Below, in pieces: positions 25,049 to 61,700 of a DNA stretch of 64,000 nt (the first letter of the stretch is position 1; the number at the start of each line of letters is the position of its first letter). Below the pieces are notes generated by a model. The model was given only the letters and a program-made list of their open reading frames with translations, made no database searches and was not told the DNA's origin. This DNA comes from Vicinamibacterales bacterium (GTDB taxonomy: Bacteria; Acidobacteriota; Vicinamibacteria; Vicinamibacterales; UBA8438). The stretch is taken from positions 154,664 through 218,663 of the forward strand of contig CBDAUL010000004.1 in assembly GCA_965200475.1 (NCBI GenBank), given 5' to 3'. The position numbers and the translations under genes were made by a program.

Positions 25049-26170
25049 TCACCGCGCGTGGACGAAGCGCTGGACTCGGCGGCCGTCGAGCGTGTCCCCC
25101 ACGTACAGGTTGCCCCGCGAGTCGAGCGCCAGGCTGTGCGGCGACTCGAACTGGCCGGCCCAGCGGCCGCGGCGGCCGAACGACGCCACGGCCTCGAGCG
25201 TGTCGCGGTCGAGCGTGTGCACGCGGTGCGAGCGCCCGTCGGCCACGACCAGCAGGCTCTGCTCGGCGTCGGTCGACAGCCCGATGTCCCACGGGTAGCC
25301 GCCCACCTGCCCGCCGCGCAGCGGCGCCTCGACGAGCGCCTCCTTGACGAACGCCCCGTCGCTGTCGAACACCTGGATGCGCTGGTTGCCGCGGTCGCAG
25401 ACGTAGACCATGCCGTCGCTGGCGCCGGCGACGCAGTGCGGCGTGTCGAACTGCGGGGGCGGCGGGTCGCCCCGGCTGAACCCGCCGGCCGCCGCGTCGT
25501 CGGGCGGGTTGCCGTACGCGCCCCAGTGCCGCTTGTAGTCGCCCGTCGCGGCGTCGAAGACGATCACGCGGCGGTTCGTGTAGCCGTCGCTGATGAACAC
25601 CTCGTTGGCCCCGGCGTCGACCCAGATGTCGGTGGGCTGACCGAGGAACGTCGTGCTGTTGCTCCCCTCGGTGCCCATCCCGAAGTCGCCGATCTGCAGC
25701 AGGCAGTCCCCCGCCGGCGTCAGCTTCACGACCAGTGCGTTGTCGGTCGTCGCCCGCGAGGAGAGGTCGTAGGGCAGGCCGCCCCCGAAGCCCACCCAGA
25801 CGTTGTCCTCGTGGTCGACGTAGATGCCGTGCGTCTGCGTCCCCCAGTCGCAGTCGCCGCCCGGGTCGCCCCAACTGTGGACCACGGCGCCGTCCTGGCC
25901 GAACGCGATGACCGGGGGCGTGTCCTCGCCGCCGCGCTGGCTGTTCGGGCGGTGGATGATCCACACGTTGTCGCCCGAGTCGACGGCCACGCCCACGACG
26001 TTGCCCAGGAGCCAGTCGCCCGGGAGGTCCTGCGGCCAGTGGGGATCGACCTGGAACGTCCCGTCGGACGGACGCGGAGGAGCCTGCGAGGCCACTGCGC
26101 CGTGGACGGCAAGGACGAAGGCGAGCGCCAGGACCGCCGCGGCGCAACCGATGCTCGATACCGGTCTCAT
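25049..26170 (-). CDS. Secreted NHL-repeat six-bladed beta-propeller protein (peptidyl-alpha-hydroxyglycine lyase-like family by motif)
   Basis: GAGGAG RBS and signal peptide. Repeated blades occur (VAVDSGDNVWIIHR, GIYVDHEDNVWVG, DIWVDAGANEVFISDGYTNRRVIVFD, GMVYVCDRGNQRIQVFD, GNLYVGDTLDGRRVQRF). Confidence 0.7.
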   Translation of the reverse strand: MRPVSSIGCAAAVLALAFVLAVHGAVASQAPPRPSDGTFQVDPHWPQDLPGDWLLGNVVGVAVDSGDNVWIIHRPNSQRGGEDTPPVIAFGQDGAVVHSWGDPGGDCDWGTQTHGIYVDHEDNVWVGFGGGLPYDLSSRATTDNALVVKLTPAGDCLLQIGDFGMGTEGSNSTTFLGQPTDIWVDAGANEVFISDGYTNRRVIVFDAATGDYKRHWGAYGNPPDDAAAGGFSRGDPPPPQFDTPHCVAGASDGMVYVCDRGNQRIQVFDSDGAFVKEALVEAPLRGGQVGGYPWDIGLSTDAEQSLLVVADGRSHRVHTLDRDTLEAVASFGRRGRWAGQFESPHSLALDSRGNLYVGDTLDGRRVQRFVHAR

Positions 26171-26241: not shown

Positions 26242-27234
26242 CTACTGCGTGTCCTCGCTCTGGGCGTCGTAGCGCTGCGCGCGCTCGACCATGTCGTCGT
26301 TGCGGATCAGCGCCCGGCGGCGATCCGGATCGAGCGCGAGGTCGCCGGTCGCCCCCATCTGACCGTCGCGGGCCAGCTCCCCGAGGGCGCGGTCGACCGC
26401 CCCCGCGGCCACCAGGTTGATGCCGCCGAAGAACGCGACGCCCACGCCGTTGTCGCGCGCCGCCTGCACGGAGGGCACCGACGCGAGCATCGGCGCGCCC
26501 GCCATCTCGACCGCCCGGGCGCACTGGTCCAGCGGTATCTGGGGAATGAAGATCAGATCGCCGCCCGCCTGGACGTAGCGCGTCATGCGCTCGAGCGCCT
26601 CGTCGAGCGGGCCGCCGCCGGCAACGACGTCGCAGCGGGTCATCAGCACCGTGTCGCCGCGGCGGGCGTCGGCGGCCGCGTGGATCTTGTCGACCATGGC
26701 GTCGGCGGCCAGGATCTTGCCCTCGCTGAGCCCCTGCAGGTGCTTGGCGCCGTACAGGTCCTCGATCATGATGCAGGCGGCGCCGGCGCGCTCGTAGCGC
26801 TGAACCGCGCGATAGACGTTGAGCGGATTCCCGCCGCCGTCGTCCGCGTCCGCGATGATCGGCAGATCGATCGCGTCGGCCGCGCGGGTGCAGAACTCGA
26901 TCAGGTCGTCCATCGTGATCATGCCGTAGTCGCCGAGCCCGAACTTGCTCAGCGACAGCGCGCTGCCGCCCGTCATCGCGATCTCGAAGCCGTGCATCTC
27001 GACGAGCCGGGCCGACGCGACGTCGCCGCAGTTGACGCAGCGGCTCGGCTCGGACCGCGCCAGCAGCTCGCGGAACCGGCCGCCCGGGCTCGAGGCCGCC
27101 GGGGCCTGCGCCGCCGCGCCGCCGGCCGCACCCAGCGCGTGGGCGGCAACCCCTCCGGCCGCCGCGGCCGTGCCCTGGATGAAACGCCGCCGTGACGGCC
27201 CGTCGGGCCGATCTGATCTCACCCGCATGCTCAT
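26242..27234 (-). CDS. Isocitrate lyase/PEP mutase superfamily enzyme with Tat signal peptide
   Basis: SRRRFIQGTAAAAGGVAAHALGA twin-arginine signal. Core motifs are PIIADADDGGGNP and GAACIMIEDL..AK. Confidence 0.7.
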   Translation of the reverse strand: MSMRVRSDRPDGPSRRRFIQGTAAAAGGVAAHALGAAGGAAAQAPAASSPGGRFRELLARSEPSRCVNCGDVASARLVEMHGFEIAMTGGSALSLSKFGLGDYGMITMDDLIEFCTRAADAIDLPIIADADDGGGNPLNVYRAVQRYERAGAACIMIEDLYGAKHLQGLSEGKILAADAMVDKIHAAADARRGDTVLMTRCDVVAGGGPLDEALERMTRYVQAGGDLIFIPQIPLDQCARAVEMAGAPMLASVPSVQAARDNGVGVAFFGGINLVAAGAVDRALGELARDGQMGATGDLALDPDRRRALIRNDDMVERAQRYDAQSEDTQ

Positions 27235-36214: not shown

Positions 36215-37129
36215 TCAGCGGTTCACGTTGATCGTGACGTCCTCATAGTCGATCAGGCCGCCGTCGTGGGCCAGCGCGCGCAGCACGTAGGTGCCGGGCT
36301 CGCTGAAGGTGGCCTGCACGGTCCAGCGGTTGTCCTCGGGCACGCGCGGCGTCTCCCAGCCCGTCGACCACGGCGAGTTGCCGCCGTCGCGGTGGTCCTG
36401 CCACACCTTCGTCTGGGGCGGATCGAACACGACCTCGCCCGGCCCCCGGTAGCGGAACCACGACAGGCGCAGCCCGGTGGCCGAGTTGGGAACGAAGTGG
36501 CTCGTGCCGATCAGCGCCACCGGAATCGAGCGCGGCGCCGGCTTGCCGTCGTCGGCGGCGACCGCGCTCAGCGTGACCGGCTCGCCGGCGCTCACGGTCA
36601 TCGTCGGGGGCGTCTCGAGCGTCAGGTCCGGGGCCATGTTGCCGATCATGTCCGGGTGGAACCCGGTCTGCCCCCCGGCGCCGAAGTTGGCCATCATGAC
36701 CGTCTCGTCGACCATGTACTCCGGCCGCAGCGTGGCGTACGCGTTCTCGGTCACGCCGTTGCTCGTTAGCGACCAGACGATCTCGTCGTCGCCGAAGTCG
36801 GCCGGCACCGTGACCTTGAAGACGAACTGGCTGCGCCGCGGGAAGAAGTGGGTCGGCTGGCCGAGGTCGGGACCACCCGGATCCATGTGGTTGTCCGGGC
36901 CGACCGGCACGTCGATCTCCTCCTCCCAGTTGCGGTTGTAGTAGCCGAACCAGAGGTCGATGGAACCGTCGTCGTGCCGCCAGAAGCCCTCGTAGACCGG
37001 GGCGATGTTCTGGCCCCGGGCCGGGGCCTGCGCGCCGGTCGCGAGCGGCGCCGCCAGCACGACGGCGACGCCGAGCGCGAGCGCCGCGGCGGAGACCCTG
37101 AGCAGCCGCGAGGAAGGCGTCGTCTGCAT
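36215..37129 (-). CDS. Family B secreted protein, copy 2
   Basis: ATG with GAGGAAGGG RBS, 21 nt after the A2 stop. Signal peptide is present. Contains the YEGFW..DDGS, NRNWEE, GQPTHFFPRR and VPADFG motifs and an Ig-like C-terminus (VTLSAVAADDG, LRLSWFRYRGPG, PGTYVLRALAHDGG). Confidence 0.8.
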   Translation of the reverse strand: MQTTPSSRLLRVSAAALALGVAVVLAAPLATGAQAPARGQNIAPVYEGFWRHDDGSIDLWFGYYNRNWEEEIDVPVGPDNHMDPGGPDLGQPTHFFPRRSQFVFKVTVPADFGDDEIVWSLTSNGVTENAYATLRPEYMVDETVMMANFGAGGQTGFHPDMIGNMAPDLTLETPPTMTVSAGEPVTLSAVAADDGKPAPRSIPVALIGTSHFVPNSATGLRLSWFRYRGPGEVVFDPPQTKVWQDHRDGGNSPWSTGWETPRVPEDNRWTVQATFSEPGTYVLRALAHDGGLIDYEDVTINVNR

Positions 37130-37150
37130 CGTCAGCTCACCCTTCCTCGA

Positions 37151-38554
37151 CTACTGGTTCTGTCCCAGCCAGGCCAGTCCCGGCTCCGGATTCTCGAAGC
37201 CGCACAGCGGACAGCCGATGGCCGACTCGCCCTCGGCCAGATCCAGCCGCTCGCGGCGCGTGGCCATCTCCTCCGCGAACTGCTCGTCGGTCAGCACGAT
37301 GGGGCTGGCGATGAGGATCGCCATGTTGTCGATCGAGCGGTGGCCGAGCCCGCCCCAGTTGCGCGGGTCCACGACGTTCTTGTTGCTGGGCGTGTTGTCG
37401 AAGTGGGCGGTGATGTGGATCAGCGTGCCCTTCGGCAGCAGCGGCGCCGAGTCGTCCGTGTAGCGGTACACCTTCACCCAGTTGTGGTCGTACCCGGCGC
37501 AGTTGAGCACCTCGGTGCGGCCGCCCCAGATGGCCTCCATGCACATCCGGACGCCGGACGCGTGCATGTGCGGCTCGAAGGTGGTGAGCTTGATGTGCTC
37601 GTCCAGCGTCCTGTACATGTGCACCTGCTGCCCGGCCGTCATGCCGCGCAGGTCGATCTCGCCGTTGCCGAACGTGAGATCGCCGAGCCGCCGCTGCGGC
37701 TCGTAGCCCCGCGGATGGAACTTGTAGCCGACGCGCAGGTGCGCGGTCGTGTCCTCGCCGTTGGCATGCATGTGGACCGACGGGAACACGAGCTGCGAGC
37801 CCGCCTTCAGCAGGCGGCCGGCCAGCGCGTCGAAGACCTCGGCGTTGCGGCCGACCTCGTGGGGGCCGCCGATGGTCTGCGACGGGCGCCCCTCGCCGTC
37901 GAGCATCGCGTGCACGGCGTGGTGGAAGATGAACTTCCCGCCGATGCCGCCCTGCACGTCGCTGACCTCCTTGAACTGCACGGCCGAGACGTAGCGATCC
38001 TCCTCGAGGCCGGTCGGCGTCGGCGCGAGCGCGCCCCACCAGTCCGGGGCCTCGGCCGCCATCGTGATCGACGGCGAATCGACGATGAGATCGGGCTCGC
38101 CGATGTCCCATTCGTCCGCGGCGGCGAAGACGCGCGCCGGCGGCAGGTCGGCGGGGTTCCCGCGGGGCGCGCCGTTGTCGACCCACGCGGCGATCGCCTC
38201 GATCTCCGCCTCGCTGAGCGAGATGTCGTCCTTGAACGCCTGGATGCCGACGTCCTTCTCGATGAACCAGGGCGGCATGACGCCCATGGTGTTCCTGAGC
38301 CCGGTCCGCTGCTTGATGCTGCGCGCCCACGGCCGCACCTCTTCGTAGGTGATGAGCGACATCGGCGCGACGGAGTTCGGCCGGTGGCAGCTCTGGCAGC
38401 TCCGCTGCAGGATCGGCGCGATGTCCCTGCTGAAGGTCACCTCGCCGGCGGACTGCTCCGCCGCCGCCGGCACGGCGAGCATCGCGGCCGCCAGCACCAG
38501 CGCCGACGCGACCGCGCCGGCCGTTCTCGAAACCGTGTTGCAGTCTGTTGTCAT
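37151..38554 (-). CDS. Family A secreted protein, copy 2: CxxCH heme-c motif + PHM/DBH-like copper monooxygenase-like domain
   Basis: GGAGGG RBS and signal peptide. Motifs are SCQSCHRP, FHH, VHMHANG, PHMHASGVRMC and IDNM, with a C-terminal GCPLCG. Confidence 0.8.
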   Translation of the reverse strand: MTTDCNTVSRTAGAVASALVLAAAMLAVPAAAEQSAGEVTFSRDIAPILQRSCQSCHRPNSVAPMSLITYEEVRPWARSIKQRTGLRNTMGVMPPWFIEKDVGIQAFKDDISLSEAEIEAIAAWVDNGAPRGNPADLPPARVFAAADEWDIGEPDLIVDSPSITMAAEAPDWWGALAPTPTGLEEDRYVSAVQFKEVSDVQGGIGGKFIFHHAVHAMLDGEGRPSQTIGGPHEVGRNAEVFDALAGRLLKAGSQLVFPSVHMHANGEDTTAHLRVGYKFHPRGYEPQRRLGDLTFGNGEIDLRGMTAGQQVHMYRTLDEHIKLTTFEPHMHASGVRMCMEAIWGGRTEVLNCAGYDHNWVKVYRYTDDSAPLLPKGTLIHITAHFDNTPSNKNVVDPRNWGGLGHRSIDNMAILIASPIVLTDEQFAEEMATRRERLDLAEGESAIGCPLCGFENPEPGLAWLGQNQ

Positions 38555-39887: not shown

Positions 39888-40601
39888 TCAGCGGGCCAGA
39901 GCCGCCTGCAGGCGCGCGAGGAAGGCCCGGATGCGGTTGGCGTTCGCGCCCAGATCGCCGACCCCCACGCGGGAGATCGAGCGGACGTCCACTACCGCGC
40001 CCCCGCTCTCCCCCGGCCGGATCCGGACGGCGACGTCGTCCTTGAAGCCGAACCAGAAGGTGGTGGCCGTCGCCTCGATTACGCCCCGCGCCGGATCCAC
40101 CGTCACGATCTCCCACCCGTGGTCCGTCGCGACCGACCGCGCCGCCTCCAGGGCCGCGCTCGGCGACGCGCCGACGGTCAGCGGCAGCACGTCCGGGTAG
40201 GCCGCCCGTTGCGTGGCGGCGAGCTGCGGCCCGCCGTACTCGAGCGGGTTCGGCGCGCCTGCGCGCAGCGGCACGACCGCCTCGAACCGCGGCGGATCGT
40301 CCGGGTCCGTCGTGATGTCGTGGATCGGCGGGGCGCCCAGCGCGGGCAGGATGTTGGCCAGCGGCACGCCGAGCGCGCCCGCCGACAGCAGGCCGGCCGC
40401 CAGCGCCCGGCGGTTGCCGAACCCCGTCCCGCGGCGGCGCAACGCCGCGATCACCCGCACCGCCAGCCACGCGAGGGTCGTCAGGATGCCCGCCAGCAGG
40501 AGCAGCAGCGCGGCGCCCAGGGGCAACAGGCCGGCCCGATGGCCGAGCGGTCCGGCCGCAATGGCCACGAACGCGGCGACAGGGATCGCGACTCGTCTCA
40601 T
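39888..40601 (-). CDS. DUF1499-type membrane-anchored protein
   Basis: C-terminal 237 aa of ORF 39888..41375. Two N-terminal hydrophobic segments. The FKDDVAVRI.P......VDVRS.SRVG..D.G.N..R pattern is typical of DUF1499. Confidence 0.65.
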   Translation of the reverse strand: MRRVAIPVAAFVAIAAGPLGHRAGLLPLGAALLLLLAGILTTLAWLAVRVIAALRRRGTGFGNRRALAAGLLSAGALGVPLANILPALGAPPIHDITTDPDDPPRFEAVVPLRAGAPNPLEYGGPQLAATQRAAYPDVLPLTVGASPSAALEAARSVATDHGWEIVTVDPARGVIEATATTFWFGFKDDVAVRIRPGESGGAVVDVRSISRVGVGDLGANANRIRAFLARLQAALAR

Positions 40602-40638
40602 CAGCGGTCTCCGCACGGCAGGGTGACCGGGCCGGCCG

Positions 40639-41637
40639 TCACGCTTCGATCGCGACGTGCGGCGCCGCATCGCGGCGCGCCGGCGCCTGGCCGCGCGCCG
40701 CCGGCTCCACCCGCTCGAGCTCGCGGCCGAGATAGGCGGCCACGGCGTGCATGCCGCGCAGCTCCACCGCGGCATCGGCCTCCGCCTGACTGTTGTAGTT
40801 GGTGTTCGTGTTGACGTCGTAGGTGTAGGCCACGCCGTTGCGGTCCGTGATGAACTCGACGCCCGCGACATGGATGCCGTTGGCAGCCAGGAAGCGCTCG
40901 TAGGCGCCGACCAGCTCGTGCCGGAAGCCGTCCACGATGGTGAACAGCGAGGCCGGCGACTCGCCCGCCGGACAGAAGGCGTCGTCCACGCGGCACGCGT
41001 CCGCGGGACACAGCTCGAAGCCCTGGCTGGTGTCGACGCGCACGGCGTAGAGGAGCTCGCCGCCCACGAACTCCACGCGCGTGATGTACGGCTCGCCGGC
41101 CTCGACGTATTCCTGGATGAGCGTGATGCCGTCGACCGACTGCTCGAACTCCGCGCTCCCGACGTAGCGCTCCAGCGCAGCGGCGTCGTGGAACAGCCGC
41201 ACCCCGAGCCCCTTGCCGGCGCGGTTGTGCTTGGTGATGAAGGGCGGGTCGAACGCGCGCCCGACCTCCACGATCGCGTCGCGTCCGACGGCCGCCACCG
41301 TGCGCGGCGTCCGGATGCCGTGCGCCTCGAGCGCGGCGTACTGCGCGACCTTGCTGACCTCGAGCTGCAGCGCACGGGAGCCGTTGGCGACCCGCCGCCC
41401 GTGCCGCTCCAGCCAGGCCAGCACGGCCGCCGTGTGCTCCGGCGCGTAGCGGTGGCCGCGCGTATGCGACGATGCGCTCATGCGGTTGTAGAAGACGCCC
41501 GCGGGGGGCGGCTGCGTCAGGTCGAGGCGCCCGGCGCCGAGAAACCACTCCTCGAACGGCAGCCGCAGCTCCTCGAACGCGGCGCGCAACGGCTCGACCC
41601 AGGCGTCGTTCTCGTGGATGACGTAGATGCGGGACAT
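40639..41637 (-). CDS. ATP-grasp domain protein (RimK/glutamate-ligase-like)
   Basis: 332 aa. Contains FITKHNRAGKG.GV, LIQEY and E.N.N.N ATP-grasp-type motifs. Confidence 0.7.
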   Translation of the reverse strand: MSRIYVIHENDAWVEPLRAAFEELRLPFEEWFLGAGRLDLTQPPPAGVFYNRMSASSHTRGHRYAPEHTAAVLAWLERHGRRVANGSRALQLEVSKVAQYAALEAHGIRTPRTVAAVGRDAIVEVGRAFDPPFITKHNRAGKGLGVRLFHDAAALERYVGSAEFEQSVDGITLIQEYVEAGEPYITRVEFVGGELLYAVRVDTSQGFELCPADACRVDDAFCPAGESPASLFTIVDGFRHELVGAYERFLAANGIHVAGVEFITDRNGVAYTYDVNTNTNYNSQAEADAAVELRGMHAVAAYLGRELERVEPAARGQAPARRDAAPHVAIEA

Positions 41638-41700
41638 TCCGCCCGCATTATAGGGCAGCGCGCCCGGGGACGGCCGTCCGCGGGCGGACGACCGTCGCGG

Positions 41701-42642
41701 CTACTCCGCGGACGCAACAGTGACGGTGATGTCGGCCGGCGTCAGGTAGCTGCTGTCGTCGGCGGCGGCGCGGATGACGTACTCCCCCGGCTCGGAGAAG
41801 CGCGCGGCGGCCGTCACCTGGCCGCCCTCGCGGGGCAGCGGCGTGACCCGCGGGTCGAAGGCCACGTCGGCCGGGCCGCGGTGCACGACCCAGGTGACCG
41901 CCAGGCCGGTGTCGTATGCGTCGAGCGGACTCACCCGGTTCTGATCCACCGGGCCGCCGCCCCCGCCGCCGCGCGGCCCGCCGATGATCGGCAGGTCGTT
42001 CGGCAGCGGATCGACCGGCGGACGCGGGCGGCGCGGGATCTCGCGCGGCCCGGGCTGGCCGTCGTCGGCCACGGCCACCGTGACGGAAACCGGCTCGCCC
42101 ACCATCGCCGAGATCGAGGTGCTGCCCACGATGCTGGCCGCCGGCGGCTGGTTGGTCAGCTCCTCGCCGGCGTACCGCCCGCGCAGGTCGGAGCCGCGGT
42201 TGGCCCGCCACACGCCCTCGTCGACCACCCAGGTGGCCCACAGCGAGCCGATCGCGGTGCGGGTCTGCCCGTGGGCGGTCACCGTCCAGACCAGGTCCCG
42301 GTCCTGGCCCCAGTCGGCCGGCACCTCGACGCCGAAGACGAAGAACTGGCGGCGCGGATAGAAGAAGGTCGGCTGGCCGCGGTCTTCCGGGCCGGAGTCG
42401 AGGTAGTTGGCGGGGCCGACCGGGATGTGCGGCTGCTCCTCGTAGTTGCGGTTCATGTAGCCGAACCACATGGTGTAGGTGCCGTCCGGATTCGGGCTCC
42501 AGCCCTCGTAGACAGGCTGGACCGACTGGCCCGAGCGGTGGAGGGTCTGCGCCGCGCCGAGGCCGCCCGCACCGAGAGCGAGCCCGAGCAGCAGCGCCGC
42601 CGCGGCCGCCGCACGCCACACGTTCCGACTGCGGGCACTCAT
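41701..42642 (-). CDS. Family B secreted protein, copy 3
   Basis: GGGGAGGGG RBS, 25 nt after the A3 stop. Signal peptide is present. Contains YEGWSPNPDGT, NRNYEE, GQPTFFYPRR and VPADWG, plus an Ig-like C-terminus. Confidence 0.8.
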   Translation of the reverse strand: MSARSRNVWRAAAAAALLLGLALGAGGLGAAQTLHRSGQSVQPVYEGWSPNPDGTYTMWFGYMNRNYEEQPHIPVGPANYLDSGPEDRGQPTFFYPRRQFFVFGVEVPADWGQDRDLVWTVTAHGQTRTAIGSLWATWVVDEGVWRANRGSDLRGRYAGEELTNQPPAASIVGSTSISAMVGEPVSVTVAVADDGQPGPREIPRRPRPPVDPLPNDLPIIGGPRGGGGGGPVDQNRVSPLDAYDTGLAVTWVVHRGPADVAFDPRVTPLPREGGQVTAAARFSEPGEYVIRAAADDSSYLTPADITVTVASAE

Positions 42643-42667
42643 GGTCGCCCCTCCCCGCCGTGGACTG

Positions 42668-44032
42668 CTAGTTGTCGTTGTTGTTGTTCGTGGTCCGGGC
42701 CGCCAGGCGCTTGTCGAGCTCCGCCGCGTACTCCTCGTCGGTCAGCTCGTACCAGTTCATGTGGGCCAGCGCCATGTCGTCGGTCGAGCGGTTGCCCCAC
42801 CCCACCCAGTTGCGCGGGTCGGAGGCCCACTTGTTGGCCTGCGAGTTGTCGTGCCAGCTCGTCACGTGGAGCATCGTCCCCTTGGGCAGCAGCGGCGCGG
42901 CGTGGTCGGCGTAGTTGTAGGCGATGTGCCAGCCGAAGTCCCAGTCGGCGCAGCTCAGCGGCTGCACCCGGCCGTCCTGGTAGACCGCCTCGAGGCACTG
43001 CCGCTTGCCGAGGTTGTGGAGGTGCGGCTGGTAGACCGTCAGCTTGATGTTCGACTTCAGGAAATAGTAGCCGTCATGCCGGATGTTGTTCTCCCCCGGC
43101 GGGAAGTCCAGGTCGTGCAGGCCGGCCACGGACCGCCACTTCACCTGCTGCTCGGGCTCGTAGCCCCGCGGGTAGAACCAGAACGCGATGGCGGTGCGGT
43201 CGTAGGTGTCCTCGCCGCTCGGGTTGGCCGAGTAGTGCATGCTCCAGCGCAACTGCGAGCCGGCCTCGAACAGCCGGGCGGTCCCGTCCGGATGGATGTC
43301 GCCCGTCTTGCCGAGGGCATACTCGCTGAGGAGCTCCGGCGATTCGTCCACCTCGCCCGGATGGAACAGGTAGGTCACGGCGTGGTGCACGACCGGGTAG
43401 CCCTCCACCGACGGCTTGGTCTCGTACGCCTTGATCCAGCGATCCTCGTCCACCCCGGGGTCGGTCACCATCTCGACCCACCAGTTCGGGCTGTCCGCCG
43501 GCATGAAGAAGGGCTCCGGGATGGGCACGACCAGATCGGGCTCGCGGCCCATCTCGTCCTCCATCGTCCAGCGCGAGAGCGTGGCGGGCAGCGTCAGCGG
43601 CGGCGGCATGTCGGCCGGGTTGCCGCGCCGCGCCCCGCCGTCGACCCACGCGGCGATGGTGGCGATCTCCGCGTCGGTCAGCGAGCGGTCGTCCTTGAAC
43701 TCCTGCACGCCCACCGTCTTGTCGATGAACCAGGGCGGCATCTTGCGGGTGACCACCCGGTCGCGGATGGACCGCGCCCACGGCCGCGAGTCCTCGTAGG
43801 TGATGAGCGACATCGGCGCGATGGCCCCCGGGCGATGGCACGTCTGGCAGGCGCGCTGGAAGATCGGCGCCACGTCCCGGGTGAAGGTCACCTCGTCGCC
43901 GGCCGTCTGCCCTGCCGCGATGGCGGGCGCGACCGCCAGCGCCGCGAGGACGGCCAGCCCGAGCGCGCGAGACGACATCGATCCGACCCGCCGACCGCCA
44001 CCCGCCACGAGCATCCCGGTGGCCATGTGCAT
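42668..44032 (-). CDS. Family A secreted protein, copy 3
   Basis: C-terminal part of ORF 42668..47215. GAGGGAGGG lies before the ATG at 44032 (alternative starts 44014 and 43978). Motifs are ACQTCHRP, VHH, MHYSAN, PHLHNLGKRQC and TDDM. Confidence 0.8.
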   Translation of the reverse strand: MHMATGMLVAGGGRRVGSMSSRALGLAVLAALAVAPAIAAGQTAGDEVTFTRDVAPIFQRACQTCHRPGAIAPMSLITYEDSRPWARSIRDRVVTRKMPPWFIDKTVGVQEFKDDRSLTDAEIATIAAWVDGGARRGNPADMPPPLTLPATLSRWTMEDEMGREPDLVVPIPEPFFMPADSPNWWVEMVTDPGVDEDRWIKAYETKPSVEGYPVVHHAVTYLFHPGEVDESPELLSEYALGKTGDIHPDGTARLFEAGSQLRWSMHYSANPSGEDTYDRTAIAFWFYPRGYEPEQQVKWRSVAGLHDLDFPPGENNIRHDGYYFLKSNIKLTVYQPHLHNLGKRQCLEAVYQDGRVQPLSCADWDFGWHIAYNYADHAAPLLPKGTMLHVTSWHDNSQANKWASDPRNWVGWGNRSTDDMALAHMNWYELTDEEYAAELDKRLAARTTNNNNDN

Positions 44033-44106
44033 GGCACCCTCCCTCATCAGTCTCGAATGGACGACGCGATAGCGGCAGGATACAACATCCGGACCATGAA
44101 TCCGGA

Positions 44107-47100
44107 TCAGAAGTCGAGCTGAAACGCGAACTTCGCGAGCCGGCCCGGCATGAACGAGCGGGGCGACAACCAGCCCGCGCCGACGCCGGTCGACGCGCCG
44201 AAGCCGACGTTCTCGATCGTGATCGTGTTGGCGTTGAACAGGTTGTAGAGGTCGAACATCGCGCGGAACTGGCCGAAGTTCCCCAGGGTGAAGATCTTCG
44301 TCACGCGAATGTCGAGCTGGTTGTACCGGTCGCCGTACCACGATCCCGGCTCGACCACGTTCAGCTCCACCCGGCTCGGCGTCAGCACGAGCTGCCCCCC
44401 CGAGACCGCGCTCTGGGCGAACTGGACGTTCGCCTGGCGCTCCGGCCCCGGCTGGTTCTGCAGCGTCGCCGCGAACTGCACGTCGCCCGGGAAGGTGTAC
44501 GACCCGAGAAACTTGACGTACGACAGCCAGTTCTCGGTCCGGCTGCAGAACTCCAGCGGCACCGTGTCCCCCTCCGGGGCCCGCTGCGGGATCGCAGCCA
44601 CTGAACCCCGGCTCCGCGCCGCGGCCGACTCGGGCAGCCGGCCCAGGATGTCGCAGAAGTCGTACGCGTGGCGCCCCGTGCTCAGGCCGCCCTGCAGCAG
44701 CACGTCGCCGGCGCGGGCGTCGATGGTGAAGTCGAAACCCTGCCACGATTCCCGCTCGCCGCCGAACGCCTCGGAGCTGAGCCGCAGCTCGTTCTGCGGC
44801 TTGGCAGCAGACTCCGGCTTCAGGTCGTAGAAGGTGAGCACCTGGCCGCCGTTCGGCAGCCCGACCCCTTCGGGGACCGTCACGCTCAGCGTGTTGAAGT
44901 CCTCCGGCACGAGGTTGGTGTCGTCGAGCACGCTGTGGTGGACCCAGTTGCGCCGGAAGTAGCCGACGTCGAGCGACACGCCGGACACCAGCTCCTGCTG
45001 GACGCTCGCCGCGTACTCCCAGTTCGAGAACCGGTTGCCCCAGCCCGAGTCCCAGCTCCCGTCGTAGAAGATCGACCGCACCGGCTGGCCGAAGAGCGGG
45101 TTGCGGTTGGGACTGCTCAACTCGCCGTTCGGCGCGAAGTTGGTCGGGTCGCCCTGCACGATGCCGTCGCCCGCGATGCACGTGCCGGCCGGCGTGCCGT
45201 CCCAGTTCCTGAACGGCGCAGCGGTGGCGATGCAGCCCGAGTCGCTCCACGACCGGTCCATGCGGCGGTTGCTGAGCGCCGGATTGATCCGCTGCGCCCA
45301 GTCGGTCGAGTCGCGCCGGCCGTAGCGGCTGACGGAGAACTTGAGCGCGGTGCGGCCGTCGCCGCGCAGGTCGTACGCCGCCCCGAGCCGCGGCTGGATG
45401 TCGGACCACCTCACCGCGGTCAGGCCTGAAATGTCGAACTGTTGCGGCACCCATTGGTTGGCGGGGCGGGTCTGGTCCGGGTAGCTGGCGGTGATGTGGT
45501 CGTAGCGGAGGCCGGCGTTGACGGTCAGCCGGTCGATGGTCCACTGCTCCTGAGCGTAGATCCCGATGCTGTTCGCCTCGTCGGTCGAGCTCGACGTCCC
45601 CCAGAACGTCGCCCGGAACGGGCGCCCCCGGAGCGTCGTGATGTGGCTCCAGTGGAAGATGCCGTCGGCGTCGTTGACCTGTTGCGTGTGCGTCCACTGC
45701 GGGTTGACGCTGAAGCCCACCTTGAGGTTGTGGCTGCCGGTGACGTACGACACCGATCCCCGGTAGTAGTCGACCTGCTTCGGCGTGTAGCGGAAGTGCG
45801 GCCCGCTCAGCCAGCCCGCCATGTTCCGGAACGCCGTCACCGGGGCGACCTCGAGCACGCCCGGGACGTCGGTACGGGCGCCGGGCGCCCGGTCGAGCCG
45901 GAACTTGATCGGCTCGTGCGACATGCCGAACTCGAACAGCAGCCGGTTGGTGTGGGGGCGCGTCCAGTTGAGCTGGTAGCCGTTCGACCTGACGTAGCGC
46001 TTCAGGGCGGCTTCGGGCGTCAGGAAGATCGACCCCAGCGTCTGACCCTGCAGCGAATGGGGCGCGTCGACGTTGCTGTTCGTCCAGTAGGCCTTGACCT
46101 TGTCCCTCGACGTTACCTGCCAGGTGACGTTGAGCGACTGCTCGCGCGCGGTCGTCGCATCGACCCCGGGCCGGCTCTCGTCGGGCATGAACGTGAAGAT
46201 CCCGGCGAGCTCCCTGGTCGGGAGATCCTGGAACGCCTGCGTGGGGTGGAAGACGCCGGCCGTCTGCAGGAAGGCGATGTTGGAGCTGTGGGTCACGAAG
46301 AACCAGAGCCGGTCCTCGATAATCGGCCCGCCGAACGAAGGGGCAATCGTGTAGTTCTTGTCGACAAGCGTGGGGGAGGTGAGGCCTCCTGCAATCAGGT
46401 CCTCGTCGAGGTTGTTGGCGTGCAGGGCAGGGCTGCTGAACGTGGTGAAGATCGACCCGCCGAACTGGTTCGCGCCCTCCCGCGGGATCATGTCGATGTT
46501 GACGCCGCCCGTCTCGATCTCGGCGGAGTTCGCCGAGTAGTTGAAGGCGATCTCCTCGAAGTTCGTATCCGGGAAGTACGACAGGTTGGCCCCCTGCGTG
46601 AACGGGTTCGCGACATCCATCCCGTTGATGGTGATGACCTGGTCCTCCCGCTCGCCGCCGTGGATCGACATGCGCTGCGAGGTCTGCGACGTCAGCCCGC
46701 CCGAGTCCTGCGCGAGGGCCGTGCCGTACGACTCGGCGCCGACCATCCCGGGAATCAGCAGGCCGTAGTTGATCAGCCCCTTGCCGGTCGGAATGCTGTC
46801 GATGATCTCCCGGTCCATCACCTGCCGCTGCTCGACGTTCTGGATGTCGACCACCGGGCTGGCGCCCGAGACCGTGACGGTCTCCTCGATGTCGCCGACC
46901 GACAACTGCACGTCGACGTTGGCGGTGAAGCCGGTGCTCAGCTCGATGCCCTCCCGGATCAGGGTGCCGAAGCCCGGCAGGCTGTAGGTAACCGCGTAGG
47001 TCCCCGGCTCGAGGGCCACGATGAGGTACTGCCCGCTGCTGTCCGTGACGGCGGTTCGCACGCCCTCGATGATCGACGGGCTGCGCGCCTCCACCGTCAC

Positions 47101-47232
47101 GCCGGGCAGCACGCCCCCGGTGGCGTCGGTCACCGTTCCGCCGATCTGCTGGGCGTGGGCCGCCCCGGAGGCGACCAGGAGCGAAGCCGCAGCCGCGAAG
47201 GCCACGAACGGACATCTGCAGAACGCGTGCAT
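44107..47232 (-). CDS. TonB-dependent receptor-like outer-membrane protein with N-terminal CarboxypepD_reg-like domain
   Basis: Signal peptide. GGTVTDATGGVLPGVTVEA...G.Y....L.PG.Y.V.. segment. About 1000 aa, barrel-sized. C-terminal ...FAFQLDF. AAGGAGG RBS. Confidence 0.8.
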   Translation of the reverse strand: MHAFCRCPFVAFAAAASLLVASGAAHAQQIGGTVTDATGGVLPGVTVEARSPSIIEGVRTAVTDSSGQYLIVALEPGTYAVTYSLPGFGTLIREGIELSTGFTANVDVQLSVGDIEETVTVSGASPVVDIQNVEQRQVMDREIIDSIPTGKGLINYGLLIPGMVGAESYGTALAQDSGGLTSQTSQRMSIHGGEREDQVITINGMDVANPFTQGANLSYFPDTNFEEIAFNYSANSAEIETGGVNIDMIPREGANQFGGSIFTTFSSPALHANNLDEDLIAGGLTSPTLVDKNYTIAPSFGGPIIEDRLWFFVTHSSNIAFLQTAGVFHPTQAFQDLPTRELAGIFTFMPDESRPGVDATTAREQSLNVTWQVTSRDKVKAYWTNSNVDAPHSLQGQTLGSIFLTPEAALKRYVRSNGYQLNWTRPHTNRLLFEFGMSHEPIKFRLDRAPGARTDVPGVLEVAPVTAFRNMAGWLSGPHFRYTPKQVDYYRGSVSYVTGSHNLKVGFSVNPQWTHTQQVNDADGIFHWSHITTLRGRPFRATFWGTSSSTDEANSIGIYAQEQWTIDRLTVNAGLRYDHITASYPDQTRPANQWVPQQFDISGLTAVRWSDIQPRLGAAYDLRGDGRTALKFSVSRYGRRDSTDWAQRINPALSNRRMDRSWSDSGCIATAAPFRNWDGTPAGTCIAGDGIVQGDPTNFAPNGELSSPNRNPLFGQPVRSIFYDGSWDSGWGNRFSNWEYAASVQQELVSGVSLDVGYFRRNWVHHSVLDDTNLVPEDFNTLSVTVPEGVGLPNGGQVLTFYDLKPESAAKPQNELRLSSEAFGGERESWQGFDFTIDARAGDVLLQGGLSTGRHAYDFCDILGRLPESAAARSRGSVAAIPQRAPEGDTVPLEFCSRTENWLSYVKFLGSYTFPGDVQFAATLQNQPGPERQANVQFAQSAVSGGQLVLTPSRVELNVVEPGSWYGDRYNQLDIRVTKIFTLGNFGQFRAMFDLYNLFNANTITIENVGFGASTGVGAGWLSPRSFMPGRLAKFAFQLDF

Positions 47233-47407
47233 GGGCGCCTCCTTGTCATTACCGGAGCGACCTGGAGGCGGGACACCGCACGCGACCGTCGCGGGATGCC
47301 AGCCTCCGACGACTGCAATCCGGCGCGGCGACGACGACGATAGAGGGCTTATAGCACAGGATCCTGCCGGGGCTTCAAGACAAACTGCGGCACGGTCGAG
47401 GCGGGCG

Positions 47408-48739
47408 TCACTCGTAGTCCGCGGCGGCCAGCGACGCCCGCATCAGCTCCCGGTCGTTGCGCGCGTGGATGTGCCGGTTGGCGTACGCGGGATGCGACCA
47501 GTTCACGTGGCGCAGCTCGCGGCGGTTGCCCGGCCGCGTGGTGGGCTCGATGAGCTGCGTCCGGCTCACCTCGTCGTAGCCCTCCGGGGTCAGGCGGGCG
47601 ATGATCAGCTCGCCGCGATCGTTGTTGATGAAGAAGCGGTCGCCGTGCTGCACGATGAAGCCCGACGCCCACCGGGCGCGCTCGCGGGTCACCGCCTGCG
47701 TCTCCCAGATGCGCTCGCCGGTCGCGGCGTCGAGCGCGCGCAACTGGCCGTAGCTGCAGATGCCGTAGACGTAGCCGTCGCGCACCACCGGCGTGTTGAC
47801 GACGGCGTGCAGGGCCTCGGTCAGGATTTCGCTCTCGCTGTTGCTCCGCCACGACACGCTGGCGTCGGGCCGGTCGGCGCTGAGGCCCAGCATGAGCGAT
47901 CCGTTGTAGAACGACGAGACGAACAACTGCCGGCCGCTGTGGACGGGCGTCGCGACGCTCATCCCCGCGCCCGCCCGCACGGGCTGCTCCCAGTGCACCG
48001 CGCCGGTCTCGGGGTCCAGGGCGGCGACCGCCTCGGGGTGCCAGATGATGAGCTGCCGCGCGCCCCCCGCGTCGATGATGATGGGCGCGGAGTACCCGGG
48101 CTCGGAGTCGGACGACAGCGCCCGCCAGATCTCCTCGCCGGTCAGCTTGTCGAACGCCACCACCTTGGCGTCGGGCTGCCCGCCCACCAGGGCAATGAGC
48201 CGGTCGCCGTCCACCAGCGGCGCCCCGGCCAGGCCCCAGGTGGGTATCTCCGTGTCGTACTCGTCGACGTAGCTGCGCGTCCACAGCAGCTCGCCGGTCT
48301 CGACGCTCAGGGCGTGCAGCATGCCGGTGGCGCCCAGGGCGTACACCCGGTCGCCGTCCACGGTCGGCGTCGCGCGCGGCCCGGTCGCCCAGGTGGTGGA
48401 GAGCCCCGTGTAGTTCGCCTCCCACTCGTAGGTCCAGAGAACCTCGCCGCTCAGCTCGTCGACGCAAACGATGCGCTCGACGACGTCGAAGACCCCGAGG
48501 TGGCGGGCGTCGGTGACGAACACCCGGCCGTCGGCCACCGCCGGTCCGGCGTAGCCCTCGTGGATCGGCACGCGCCAGTCCACCTGCAGGCCGGCCTCCG
48601 GAAACGTCTCCACGATGCCGGTCTCGGTCCAGACGCCCCGCCGGTCGTCCCCCCGCCACTGGGGCCAGTCCTCGGCGCGCGCCTCGAGGCCGCCGCCCGC
48701 CAGAATCGCCAGGCACACCAACACTGCTTTCGGTCGCAT
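47408..48739 (-). CDS. Secreted PQQ-like beta-propeller repeat protein
   Basis: Signal peptide then DWPQWRGD..R.G. Repeated A..DG.V(F/Y)V and G..LW motifs. Confidence 0.75.
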   Translation of the reverse strand: MRPKAVLVCLAILAGGGLEARAEDWPQWRGDDRRGVWTETGIVETFPEAGLQVDWRVPIHEGYAGPAVADGRVFVTDARHLGVFDVVERIVCVDELSGEVLWTYEWEANYTGLSTTWATGPRATPTVDGDRVYALGATGMLHALSVETGELLWTRSYVDEYDTEIPTWGLAGAPLVDGDRLIALVGGQPDAKVVAFDKLTGEEIWRALSSDSEPGYSAPIIIDAGGARQLIIWHPEAVAALDPETGAVHWEQPVRAGAGMSVATPVHSGRQLFVSSFYNGSLMLGLSADRPDASVSWRSNSESEILTEALHAVVNTPVVRDGYVYGICSYGQLRALDAATGERIWETQAVTRERARWASGFIVQHGDRFFINNDRGELIIARLTPEGYDEVSRTQLIEPTTRPGNRRELRHVNWSHPAYANRHIHARNDRELMRASLAAADYE

Positions 48740-48785
48740 GCTCGAAATGATAGTCCCTGCGATCCCTTGCGCGCGACCGCGGCCG

Positions 48786-51700: not shown

Positions 51701-51869
51701 ACCCCTCGATCAGCGCCGGGCTGGCCGCCTCGACGGTCACGCCGGGGAGTACGCCCCCGGTGGTATCCGACACCTGCCCGGCGATGCCCTGCGCCGCTGC
51801 CGGTGTCGTGGAGATGAGAAGGAGGAAGACGAGCAGACCGCCGAACGCCGCCAGCGACCGTCGTGGCAT
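48786..51869 (-). CDS. TonB-dependent receptor-like outer-membrane protein with N-terminal CarboxypepD_reg-like domain (paralog of 44107..47232)
   Basis: Signal peptide. GQVSDTTGGVLPGVTVEA...G.Y....L.PGEYTVTF segment. C-terminal ...FGLQLDF. Confidence 0.8.
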   Translation of the reverse strand: MPRRSLAAFGGLLVFLLLISTTPAAAQGIAGQVSDTTGGVLPGVTVEAASPALIEGSRTVFTDGGGLYNIIDLRPGEYTVTFTLPGFATIIREGITLNAGFTATVDVELSVGGVEETVTVTGASPVVDVQNVVQQEVLTAETLDTLPIAKSLASFVAVVPGLKVGVTYANADVGGTTGDRPIGTSIHGSRAADQHVYYNGQRTNNINASAASTGGGGAQSIYFNPAAIAEISLETGQQSITNDSGGVLINVIPKEGGNTLSGTVLFNGTNGDLQADNLTDELRGAGVNPPRIKNIFDVNGGIGGPIIRDRIWFHGAYRRWGTESYQPTRFFYDNPVGWPSLPLAGSAAARYGLHGNYNPNAIRDATTQAYDQNLSWDLNGIITMQVSDNNKIAVAGTRQRRCLCYFGIDFRNASPEATWLARDRSHYWQAKWTYTASSRLLIQAGTSSNKMNWNSGPNPIASDDIVSVLDTDTGFRTRATDRYNGRDQAKGYNSSTYHSNVAVSYVTGSHTLMVGGSYLHGRPTTDWESNRGLNYEFSPDAAGTLAPSAVIMRATPQSLLNRVNEVALYASDQWTIDRLTLNLGIRYTHFDGFVPDVSLPAGPFVPQRNYQRVDDIVSWHDLTPRVGFAYDLFGSGRTALKATFARYLIGHAGDVINRENPQVFVAENARRTWNDLNGNFEPDCVLHAKGTFGGIAGIPGANGECGAISNVQFGDFLGRSTFQDEATLFGWHKRDDNWEITAGVQHELAPGVALDVVYFRRWYGNFLTLDNRAVTNASYDEYCLTGPLDSRLPGGGGELICGLYDIQPAFFGQVDNLNTFASHFGEQTEVYNGFDVTVNARLADGAFIAGGVNIGRTATNDCAVRPDSPEARFCAVTPPFLTDLKLSAAYPLPWWDIEFSATIQNSPGSEIGANWTTLPAAANAVWASGGQPTAMPFRTFAAGTGARVTLPLIEPGTLYGDRLNQVDFRVSKSIRMDRYNLKVIMDLYNLFNLNPTITFNNTYGSRWQNPFTILPGRFAKFGLQLDF

Positions 51870-51949: not shown

Positions 51950-52793
51950 GCCTGTTGCGCGCGGCCGCGGAGGCGCCACGCCGCCGATACAGCTCCACCA
52001 GCATCGCCGCCGGGCCCACCAGGAAGAGCGCGTAGAAAGGCGCGTAGACGACCTCGGCCAGGCGGAGTGCGGCCTCGACCAGCGCCACCGCCAGCACGAC
52101 CACGCACTGCGCCCGCCCGGAGCGCACGGTCGTCCGCGGGTCGGTGATCATGAAGAAGACGAACAGTTGGTACATCGGCCCGGTGATGGGCGCCGCCTCC
52201 GCCAGCCACGGGCCGTCTCCGATCCAGCTCCGGGCGAACGACAACGCGAGAAACGCGGCGACGTAGGTGGCGCAGATGTGCAGGCGCCCGACGCGCCAGA
52301 CCGCCACCGCGCCCAGCACCCAGATGATCGCCATGGGCCACAGCGTGTTGCCCCACTGGATGCTCAGTACGGCGACGGTCGACGGGGCGAGCCAGAGCAT
52401 CGCGCACACCCCGAAGTTCGAGGGGTTCCAGACGTGGCGCCCCCGCACCCGCAGGACGTACTTGGAGGCGATGGAGAGCAGGCTGCAGGCGGCGTAGGGC
52501 CACGCGAGCGGCGAGCGGATCAGGATGCCGACGCTGATGCCGGTGATGTACGCGCTGGCCAGGTGCGGCCAGCGCCCGTAGGTCAGACGGCCCAGGACGG
52601 CCTCGGCGAGCAGACTCGCGGCGATGGCGAGCAGCGTCCGCTCGTAGCTCTCGAGAATCCCGAACGAGAGGTGTCCGCCCAGGAGGATCGCGGTGATCAA
52701 CGCCGGCGCCAGGAAGCGGTTCGCGTCCCAGTTCCGCGCCCCCGGGGTGCCGGCGGCTGCGACCGGCCGCGGCGCGTCGGGAACCCGGATCAT
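51939..52793 (-). CDS. Polytopic membrane protein with RnfD/NqrB-like FFMxTDP motif
   Basis: C-terminal 284 aa of ORF 51939..53999. Eight or more hydrophobic segments. Contains LFVFFMITDPRTT. The ATG overlaps the upstream stop (ATGA 52790-52793). Confidence 0.6.
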   Translation of the reverse strand: MIRVPDAPRPVAAAGTPGARNWDANRFLAPALITAILLGGHLSFGILESYERTLLAIAASLLAEAVLGRLTYGRWPHLASAYITGISVGILIRSPLAWPYAACSLLSIASKYVLRVRGRHVWNPSNFGVCAMLWLAPSTVAVLSIQWGNTLWPMAIIWVLGAVAVWRVGRLHICATYVAAFLALSFARSWIGDGPWLAEAAPITGPMYQLFVFFMITDPRTTVRSGRAQCVVVLAVALVEAALRLAEVVYAPFYALFLVGPAAMLVELYRRRGASAAARNRLDG

Positions 52794-58107: not shown

Positions 58108-58250
58108 TCGCGAAGGGCAGGCCGCAAGCCGTTGTCGTGCCCGTCCCGGCGATTGTCAACGCCGGGCCGGGTGCACGTCAAGATCGCATGCCGAATCGGG
58201 CCAGGGACGGCTCGGCGCGCTCGCGGCGGCGCTGCGTCGCCAGATGACGC

Positions 58251-61615: not shown

Positions 61616-61700
61616 CGTGGCTCTTCCGGATTAATCCCGGGTTCGTCGGCCTGCCCCTACTCTGCCAGCGGTTGCCGACGCGCGCAAGCCGCCGCCGGCA

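Follow-up and report, generated by a model that had tools for sequence, protein, structure and literature searches.

A recurrent secreted gene pair of Vicinamibacterales encoding a predicted cytochrome c-fused PHM/DBH-like protein and a tandem Ig-like partner

PHM, DBH and tyramine beta-monooxygenase (TBM) are textbook eukaryotic enzymes that depend on ascorbate. The work done on this copper-monooxygenase fold has mainly concerned hormone-processing enzymes of animals, and the manner in which electrons travel between the two distant copper sites of PHM-type enzymes is still debated. To our knowledge, the exact pairing of a His3 and a His2Met site on the PHM fold is known only from these three enzymes. 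In animals and some algae PHM forms part of the bifunctional PAM, of which PAL is the lyase half. Two further systems bear comparison with the genes described here, namely MbnH, a heme enzyme which reportedly converts a Trp residue of the beta-sandwich protein MbnP and whose genes are said to adjoin that of a TonB-dependent transporter, and the quinohemoprotein (type II) alcohol dehydrogenases and other periplasmic redox enzymes to which a class I cytochrome c domain with one heme is fused. A stretch of 64,000 nucleotides (nt) from a soil/marine acidobacterium of the order Vicinamibacterales (contig CBDAUL010000004.1; this whole stretch is hereafter the window) carries four copies of a two-gene module, in which gene A codes for a secreted protein with a c-type cytochrome domain and a predicted PHM/DBH-like core, and gene B for a secreted protein predicted to consist of two immunoglobulin (Ig)-like domains. 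The two products are considered, with moderate confidence, to be the subunits of a PHM/DBH-type copper monooxygenase that acts outside the cytoplasm, probably in the periplasm.

Among known enzymes the PHM/DBH/TBM family comes closest to protein A, which resembles PHM and DBH in its extracytoplasmic, secreted location, its predicted two-lobed beta-sandwich fold and the order (HH..H/HxH..M) and similar spacing of its candidate copper ligands. Unlike these enzymes it is bacterial, shows no detectable sequence-profile similarity to them and does not keep the PHM clamp positions. It further differs in having an N-terminal c-type cytochrome domain where PHM and DBH use soluble ascorbate or DOMON/cytochrome b561 systems, in its proposed obligate tandem-Ig partner, encoded separately or fused to it and without a counterpart in PHM and DBH, and in its massive paralogy, with at least five copies in 66 kb. 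As with PAM, homologs of both the PHM-like and the PAL-like half are found in the region and are operonic or adjacent in several lineages. The homology of the PAL-like half is clear, however, whereas the PHM-like half has diverged strongly, the two are never fused to each other here, and their function would presumably be catabolic and periplasmic rather than the maturation of peptide hormones. The MbnH/MbnP (MopE/CorA-type) systems are likewise gene pairs in which the gene for a secreted heme protein precedes that for a secreted beta-sandwich protein, in some cases with a TonB-dependent receptor gene alongside, but A combines a single CxxCH motif with a PHM-type core rather than being a di-heme MauG/CCP-like peroxidase. 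B is without the conserved metal-binding residues that a copper-binding partner should have, and no sequence or fold-specific match was obtained. As in the quinohemoprotein dehydrogenases, the covalently fused single-heme domain of A would wire the active site to the electron pool of the periplasm. In contrast to those enzymes, the cytochrome of A is N-terminal to a putative copper-binding PHM-like core rather than joined to a pyrroloquinoline quinone (PQQ) propeller, and is proposed as a point of electron entry rather than exit.

Organisation of the A-B pairs

The G+C content of the window is 71.7%, as a result of which it contains many long spurious open reading frames (ORFs). Real genes were told from these by their codon-position G+C, with ~0.95 at the third codon position and a higher value at the first than at the second. 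The first-pass annotation of the window had placed four A-B pairs in it, with A located 5' of B on the same strand in each copy, and had assigned signal peptides to all eight proteins. Translation of the regions and full-length alignments bear out the pairs, their order and their orientation:

9408-10826, minus strand: A1, 472 amino acids, 60% identity with A2, GCPLCG tail present
8440-9411, minus strand: B1, 323 amino acids, GTG start
37151-38554, minus strand: A2 (the focal copy), 467 amino acids, signal peptide, cytochrome c domain, predicted PHM/DBH-like two-lobed core and C-terminal GCPLCG tail
36215-37129, minus strand: B2, 304 amino acids, signal peptide and two predicted tandem Ig-like beta-sandwich domains
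42668-44032, minus strand: A3, 454 amino acids, 44% identity with A2, no CPLC tail, TonB-dependent receptor gene immediately upstream on the same strand
41701-42642, minus strand: B3, 313 amino acids
61783/61789-63105, plus strand: A4, 440 amino acids from the GTG at 61783 or 438 from the ATG at 61789 (the public gene call)
63163 to beyond 64000, plus strand: B4, cut by the end of the window, 305 amino acids in the public contig (L081)

The stop codon of A1 and the GTG start of B1 share 4 nt, which suggests translational coupling, while the two genes are separated by 21 nt containing the Shine-Dalgarno (SD)-like sequence GGAAGGGTGAG in copy 2, by 25 nt in copy 3 and by 57 nt in copy 4. In full-length alignments the paralogs share 43-60% identity for A and 39-54% for B, and for both proteins copies 1 and 2 form one clade, with copies 3 and 4 more distant. 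A single A query from outside the window gave four tblastn matches within it (E 0 to 1e-97), as did a single outside B query (E 1e-107 to 1e-40), and at the level of sequence this four-fold recurrence of both genes is far above chance. The first 45 residues of each of the eight proteins contain a basic n-region and, after it, a hydrophobic 12-mer whose mean Kyte-Doolittle value is 2.2-3.0. These basic and hydrophobic leaders fit predicted Sec signal peptides and agree with the earlier assignment.

A fifth A gene (A5, L081:12346-13728), coding for an A2-like protein of 460 amino acids with the GCPLCG tail, is located just past the end of the window, directly after B4 and without a B of its own. 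The order A4-B4-A5 is also kept in a second Vicinamibacterales genome (L004), suggesting that a single B may serve two A proteins.

No sigma-70 promoters or intrinsic terminators were found in scans around copy 2, and alignment of the four regions upstream of A revealed no common regulatory motif except SD-like sequences. Palindromic TCCGGA hexamers occur upstream of A3 (44033-44106) and A4 (61616-61788), in the sequences TCCGGATTCATGGTCCGGA and TCCGGATTAATCCCGGG, and were not seen upstream of A1 or A2; they may represent a regulator site. Rfam and tRNA scans of the window gave no matches.

Cytochrome c domain and PHM/DBH-like core of A

The candidate functional residues of A were located on the focal copy, and the codon coordinates of the candidate ligands were checked against the sequence. 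All of the following are on the minus strand:

38150-38449: cytochrome c domain, ~residues 36-135
38384-38398: heme motif C53-x-x-C56-H57 (CxxCH)
38360-38362: M65, invariant, candidate axial ligand
38276-38278: M93, invariant, candidate axial ligand
37235-38107: predicted PHM/DBH-like core, ~residues 150-440
37919-37924: H211/H212, candidate CuH ligands
37772-37774: H261, candidate CuH ligand
37568-37570: H329, candidate CuM ligand
37562-37564: H331, candidate CuM ligand
37322-37324: M411, candidate CuM ligand

The five residues of the cytochrome domain (C53, C56, H57, M65 and M93) are kept in all 84 A homologs that are paired with a B. With the CxxCH motif, the candidate axial Met residues and an export leader, the domain has the features of a class I c-type cytochrome. 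The Pfam Cytochrome_CBB3 and Cytochrom_C matches to A are weak, reach 17-22 bits against gathering cutoffs of 21-27 and are all below cutoff, an A profile matches PccH (4rlr) and the heme domain of hydrazine synthase marginally only, and a scan of NCBIfam gave no match to any A protein. The attachment of c-type heme is a periplasmic process.

An AlphaFold2 model of A2, built with 115 homologs (pLDDT 82.8, pTM 0.80), places a short helical domain (~residues 40-126) before two beta-sandwich lobes (~156-297 and ~309-421). When this model was compared with the PDB using Foldseek, the best match was human DBH (4zel; E 8.5e-10, probability 1.0), followed by ~30 entries of rat PHM (1phm and others) with E 2e-8 to 2e-5, probability 1.0 and target-normalised TM-scores of 0.47-0.59. 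The DBH and PHM matches extend over 290-380 columns, nearly the entire PHM core, and no other fold comes close. H211, H212, H261, H329, H331 and M411, together with C338 and C352, which probably form a disulfide in the predicted protein, are invariant in the 84 paired A genes. These eight residues and the five of the cytochrome domain are also invariant or nearly so in the 115 database homologs, H211, H212 and H261 being present in every one of these. In the model H211, H212 and H261 lie on strands of lobe 1, and H329, H331 and M411 on strands of lobe 2. The spacing of these residues (212 to 261 to 329, and 331 to 411) is similar to that which we take to hold in PHM (108 to 172 to 242, and 244 to 314), and the D-x-M surrounding the Met of A resembles what is presumably a D-E-M in PHM.

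The residues around the ligands differ from those of PHM. In PHM the carboxylate clamp for peptidylglycine is presumably made up of R240, two positions before HxH, and of N316 and Y318, which follow the Met (the numbering is assumed). Among the 84 paired A proteins the position two before HxH is occupied by Glu in 76, Gln in five, other residues in three and Arg in none, while the second position after the Met is Ile, Leu or Phe and the fourth is Leu, Ile, Trp or Phe. With Glu or Gln in place of R240 and hydrophobic residues at the N316 and Y318 positions, the canonical peptidylglycine clamp is absent from A. On the basis of the predicted structure, A thus appears to be a very divergent bacterial PHM/DBH fold fused to cytochrome c, with the copper ligand set intact, and is not a strict peptidylglycine hydroxylase.

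Near the C-terminus the motif G-C-P-L-C-G (C448/C451 of A2, window positions 37202-37213) is nearly invariant in the subfamily of A1, A2 and A5 and absent from A3 and A4. A role of this tail in the handling of Cu(I), through its CxxC, or as a redox disulfide is conceivable.

Association of A with B and with neighbouring genes

When one genome per GTDB species was scanned for A, at least 596 loci were recovered, and more than 7,000 matches to A were found among clusters at 90% identity. The best 80 loci were analysed; they belong mostly to Vicinamibacterales, with others in Bryobacteraceae, Terriglobia and one metagenome-assembled genome (MAG) of Gemmatimonadales. Together with the window they provide 108 A genes and 91 B genes. 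Of the 108 A genes, 84 are followed on their own strand by a B gene at a distance of at most 600 nt, and an A gene precedes 84 of the 91 B genes, although one order dominates the loci and many are orthologous, so that the raw counts overstate their independence. Among the A genes without a downstream B, six are at contig ends and a few have a B upstream instead. Clustering of the flanking ORFs in the 80 loci showed that A and B alone are conserved, the next families being present in only 8-14 of the 80. Pairwise distances among the A proteins closely track those among the B proteins (Mantel r = 0.887, p = 0.001), and the sequence distances indicate that A-B pairs duplicate and diverge as units.

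The two proteins are also fused, in three topologies and with no internal signal peptide in any of them. An A-B fusion is represented by P0333, whose 90% identity cluster has 19 members (10 of the 15 members listed are of 627-691 amino acids, from JGI, ENA, Logan and NCBI assemblies), and by P0342 (cluster of six), and both of these lineages were found again in independent assemblies. The order is reversed in the B-A fusion P0368, while in P0324, encoded on a contig of 4.09 Mb, A is placed between the first domain of B and the remainder of its second domain. The A-B fusions provide Rosetta-stone evidence for a physical A-B unit.

The AlphaFold2 model of B2 (pLDDT 84.4) consists of two tandem Ig-like beta-sandwiches, for which Foldseek returned only generic tandem-Ig proteins (among them titin, RPTP and intimin). 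B has no Pfam match above threshold, no NCBIfam match and no PDB sequence match with either a single sequence or a profile; the Pfam PKD model scores 18.8 bits on the second domain of B2 only, against a cutoff of 23.5, and the fold is generically Ig-like. When 1.84 billion representatives were searched exhaustively with a B profile, 707 diverse relatives of B were recovered at E<=1e-30. Across the 84 paired B proteins, the 41 columns conserved at 95% or more hold Gly, Pro, Asn, Asp, Arg, Gln, Phe and Trp, and no His, Cys or Met. It follows that B is probably not catalytic, and that it would have neither a metal site nor the role of a copper chaperone. Comparison with known folds points the same way, since the Foldseek results for B include no DOMON, cupredoxin or chaperone fold. 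B was accordingly taken to be neither a copper chaperone nor a heme or sugar domain of the DOMON kind. The Ig-like periplasmic copper chaperones PCuAC, CopC and YcnI were likewise rejected as models for B, given that its mature N-termini are unconserved, no His or Met is conserved and no Pfam match was obtained. The most conserved motif of the first domain, FGYxNxN..VPxGxxNxFxPxxxDRGQPTxFxPG, recurs as seven tandem repeats in each of P0299 (943 amino acids) and P0365 (983 amino acids), which are large surface proteins with a C-terminal DUF11. The first domain of B is thus a member of a wider, undescribed beta-sandwich module for which there is no Pfam model.

These results agree with the first-pass annotation in several respects. 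It had taken A for a heme-c and PHM-like protein, and the CxxCH motif is invariant while the fold search and the invariant HH..H/HxH..M pattern recover the PHM likeness. It had also proposed, from the four pairs alone, that A and B act together, which is strengthened by the synteny well beyond this genome, the mirrored A and B trees and the fusions in several lineages. Finally, it did not recognise the pair as a characterised system; the homologs are indeed syntenic elsewhere, and no curated family, PDB sequence or literature match was found for B or for the pair. The recurrent PAL-like neighbour, the A-B fusions and the fifth A copy are additional to that annotation.

The PAL-like neighbour is an NHL beta-propeller protein. 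The copy in the window is as follows:

25049-26095, minus strand: PAL-like Zn-lyase NHL beta-propeller, a 72%-identical copy of the recurrent family, ~10 kb from the nearest A-B pair and adjoining none

The profile of this family aligns with rat PAL (3fvz) in one stretch (65-367 against 17-320, E 1.2e-42) comprising nearly the whole catalytic core. The residues which in the six-bladed NHL propeller of PAL serve as Zn ligands (H585, H690 and H786), as the catalytic Tyr (Y654) and as Arg706 correspond to H89, H220, H320, Y172 and R235 of the window protein, all of them conserved positions in the family. By sequence the family is a true homolog of PAL. PAL-like genes occur in 10 of the 80 A-centred loci, in eight of which they are immediately adjacent, and flank A or B in at least eight arrangements, including positions beside two fusion lineages:

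L077, L078: A-B-PAL
L020, L023: A-PAL
L101, L109, L116, L131: PAL-A-B, gap ~45 nt
L065: PAL-like gene divergent from A-B
L082, L083: PAL-like gene divergent from the fusion P0342, in two samples
L051, L055, L056, L084: PAL-like gene convergent with A/B

In a reciprocal test, 80 PAL-centred metagenome loci were collected with a profile of four closer sequences, a profile of ten sequences having been too divergent, and A-B was found in five of the 40 PAL-centred loci of at least 8 kb. The association of A-B with PAL-like genes is real but partial. Upstream of the PAL-like gene of the window, on the same strand, lies a gene of the phosphoenolpyruvate (PEP)-mutase/isocitrate lyase (ICL) family (26242-27234, minus strand) with a weak twin-arginine translocation (TAT) signal. 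The placement of an exported ICL-superfamily enzyme beside a putative glyoxylate-releasing lyase is a curious pairing, but among the loci examined this gene is not a recurrent neighbour of either A-B or PAL-like genes. A secreted CxxCH cytochrome of 142 amino acids (L084:7502-7930, minus strand) adjoins the PAL-like gene near an A-B fusion in another locus, and is a candidate electron donor.

The four pairs are surrounded by genes for TonB-dependent receptors, a PQQ dehydrogenase, CRTAC1-like FG-GAP/ASPIC proteins, tetratricopeptide repeat (TPR) proteins, DUF1592/DUF1552/ankyrin triads and hydrolases. Three of the neighbours belong to families which recur near A-B:

44107-47232, minus strand: TonB-dependent receptor (CarboxypepD_reg and outer-membrane beta-barrel), on the strand of A3 and 74 nt upstream of it; receptors of this type are near A-B in eight of the 80 loci
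14497-16497, plus strand: PQQ-dependent dehydrogenase, of a family near A-B in 13 of the 80 loci and directly upstream of the fusion P0324
38843-39829, plus strand: protein of the 'C' family, secreted, ~330 amino acids, divergent from A2

The 'C' family is found near A-B in 14 of the 80 loci, in some of them as A-B-C with genes that overlap by 4 nt, and also accompanies PAL-like genes in nine of 40 loci; examples are L031:7396-8445, L049:7400-8449 and L037:7257-8246. Its members have the conserved motifs PDLQGxW, DPPDGRxP, WEGxTLVVET and EYACHEGNY as well as two conserved Cys residues, and have no match in Pfam, NCBIfam or the PDB sequences. Apart from orthologous loci, no recurrence near A-B was found for the PEP-mutase-like, cyclase, Abhydrolase_10, ATP-grasp-like (332 amino acids), DUF1499, PQQ_2 propeller, 284-amino-acid and tannase genes.

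Copy 3 is situated in a co-directional cluster (39888-51869, minus strand) of genes for a TonB-dependent receptor, a PQQ_2 (BamB-like) propeller, a second TonB-dependent receptor, A3, B3, the ATP-grasp-like protein of 332 amino acids and DUF1499, with gaps of 25-175 nt. This cluster probably represents one or two operons that tie uptake to A3-B3. Elsewhere in the window, a three-gene set on the plus strand is present in two copies (3-731/728-2077/2360-3691 and 19472-21856/21853-23196/23234-24826), coding for a multi-domain protein of the DUF1592 type whose N-terminal part is a PSCyt cytochrome c domain, a DUF1552 protein (HXXSHH) and an ankyrin-repeat protein. This DUF1592/DUF1552/ankyrin triad is also found near A-B in other genomes. 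Several CRTAC1-like FG-GAP/UnbV_ASPIC and TPR genes are located at 11043-14255 and 52790-61615 (both minus strand). One of these, 11043-12608, joins UnbV_ASPIC, an AhpC/TSA redoxin domain and TPRs, and may be the C-terminal part of a gene of which 12675-14255 is the remainder, a frameshift or stop having separated the two.

Proposed function and significance

As a copper monooxygenase of the PHM/DBH type, the A-B unit would operate as follows. The N-lobe site (H211, H212 and H261) would correspond to the electron-storing CuH, and the C-lobe site (H329, H331 and M411) to CuM, at which O2 would be activated and a C-H bond hydroxylated. The cytochrome c domain, located immediately N-terminal to the CuH lobe, would stand in for ascorbate and pass single electrons to CuH, having itself received them from periplasmic donors such as soluble cytochromes c or the PQQ dehydrogenases encoded nearby. 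B would be a permanent, non-catalytic subunit on A, with a possible part in shaping or gating the substrate site or in docking the enzyme. The substrate probably differs among the paralogs. The presence of many paralogs, each with its own co-diverged B, suggests a range of substrates, while the TonB-dependent receptors nearby suggest that these are imported compounds. The recurrent PAL-like lyase further suggests that some members hydroxylate a carbon next to nitrogen, the product then being cleaved (oxidative N-dealkylation or amide release). The putative extracytoplasmic oxidative function that the first-pass annotation had proposed from the neighbouring genes is consistent with all of the evidence.

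Several observations weigh against this interpretation. PF01082 (Cu2_monooxygen) and PF03712 (Cu2_monoox_C) gave no match to whole A proteins at E<=1 or to the isolated lobes of the four paralogs at E<=10, and a PDB sequence search with the C-terminal 330 residues of A, as a single sequence or as a profile of 115 sequences, returned nothing and did not reach PHM or DBH. The relation of A to PHM is therefore one of predicted fold and motif pattern, and the equivalence of its ligands to those of CuH and CuM is deduced from their order, spacing and strand location rather than from superposed coordinates. Copper binding and O2 dependence are candidate properties of A, and the heme could be an exit for electrons instead of an entry. 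Approximately 20% of the A genes, A5 among them, have no adjacent B, and since the top motif of B is also found in the repeats of unrelated surface proteins, its conservation may be structural and not that of an interface or binding site. PAL-like genes are found near (within 5-10 kb of) only ~12% of the modules, in both directions of the test, and adjoin none of the four pairs of the window. PAL-like genes have PQQ dehydrogenase, 'C' and TonB-dependent receptor genes nearby about as often as they have A-B, so that the association may partly reflect islands of secreted oxidative enzymes.

These last observations bear most directly on a more specific version of the monooxygenase, a bacterial split PAM in which A, with or without B, is powered by cytochrome c and hydroxylates the alpha carbon of a glycine-terminated or N-alkyl amide substrate, after which the PAL-like lyase frees the amide and glyoxylate or another aldehyde in the catabolism of imported peptide-like or amide compounds. 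The PAL homologs keep all catalytic and Zn residues, their eight or more arrangements with A and B span separate lineages and include apparent PAL-A-B and A-B-PAL operons as well as positions beside A-B fusions, one such gene lies within the window, and TonB-dependent receptors upstream of A3 and in other loci would supply the imported compounds. Set against this are the small proportion of modules with a PAL-like neighbour, the equal frequency of the other families near PAL-like genes and the loss of the peptidylglycine clamp positions in A, and the proposal is accordingly tentative and somewhat unlikely. Its fullest form, in which A-B and the PAL-like protein are a prokaryotic, cytochrome-c-driven counterpart and possibly the evolutionary source of PAM, performing a periplasmic two-step oxidative cleavage of C-N bonds, first by the copper hydroxylase and then by the Zn lyase, with which abundant soil and marine Acidobacteriota would degrade imported peptide-like, N-acyl-glycine or other N-alkyl amide compounds in many paralogous versions, B setting the substrate specificity, is doubtful. 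A different reading of the heme is that A is a heme-copper electron-transfer oxidase or dehydrogenase, which oxidises a reductant, metal ion or small molecule and releases the electrons through cytochrome c to the respiratory chain, or which reduces O2 without oxygen insertion. The cytochrome c domains of quinohemoprotein dehydrogenases are electron exits, and no PHM substrate-binding residues are kept in A, but a His3 and His2Met mononuclear pair on the PHM fold is not known from enzymes other than O2-activating hydroxylases and the six ligand residues are invariant across very divergent paralogs, making such an oxidase improbable.

The role of B admits further explanations. One-to-one pairing and co-divergence with A, a beta-sandwich with invariant aromatic residues and Arg (W119, F61, R66 and R98, for instance) and the TonB-dependent receptor adjoining copy 3 would all suit a protein that is the dedicated substrate or client of A, which would oxidise a residue of B into a cofactor or binding site in the way that MbnH acts on the Trp of MbnP. 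B has no conserved His, Cys or Met for a metal site, however, and A has a single heme and a PHM fold in place of those of a di-heme peroxidase. Moreover, fusions in three topologies, including one with A inside B, better fit a permanent complex, and the A-B-A arrangements provide one B for two A proteins, so that this relationship is judged quite improbable. The adjacency of A and B might also be without meaning, a product of recent common descent or of hitch-hiking in a duplicating island, as might be supposed from the predominance of Vicinamibacterales among the loci examined and from the clustering of other secreted-enzyme families in the same islands. This is extremely unlikely, since the order is kept in paralog pairs that are only ~40% identical, the flanking genes are unconserved where A-B is conserved, the pair is found also in Bryobacteraceae, Terriglobia and the Gemmatimonadales MAG, and independent gene fusions exist.

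The literature, as far as it was covered, yielded no account of a bacterial fusion of cytochrome c with PHM or of its partner, and reviews of PAM treat PHM and PAL as eukaryotic. The curated families (Pfam 2025 and NCBIfam 2026) cover neither the A core nor either of the B domains, and in the NCBI records an adjacent pair (MEE2635876.1 and MEE2635877.1) is labelled as two hypothetical proteins. What would be new here is a known catalytic fold in a new architecture, with a heme c entry module and an obligate Ig-like subunit, and in a new domain of life. As the A core and the B domains are outside Pfam and NCBIfam, thousands of proteins now termed hypothetical could be annotated. A very large bacterial family with the predicted PHM/DBH fold and ligand set, in which the point of electron entry would be built in and spectroscopically visible, would suit mechanistic work, and may yield new catalysts for periplasmic C-H hydroxylation that are independent of ascorbate. 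Whether the chemistry of peptide amidation has a bacterial origin or analogue is a question prompted by the recurrent PAL homolog. The Vicinamibacteria and related bacteria abound in soils and sediments, and their genomes are rich in genes for unannotated secreted proteins; in these organisms the A-B module represents a candidate activity in the turnover of organic matter.

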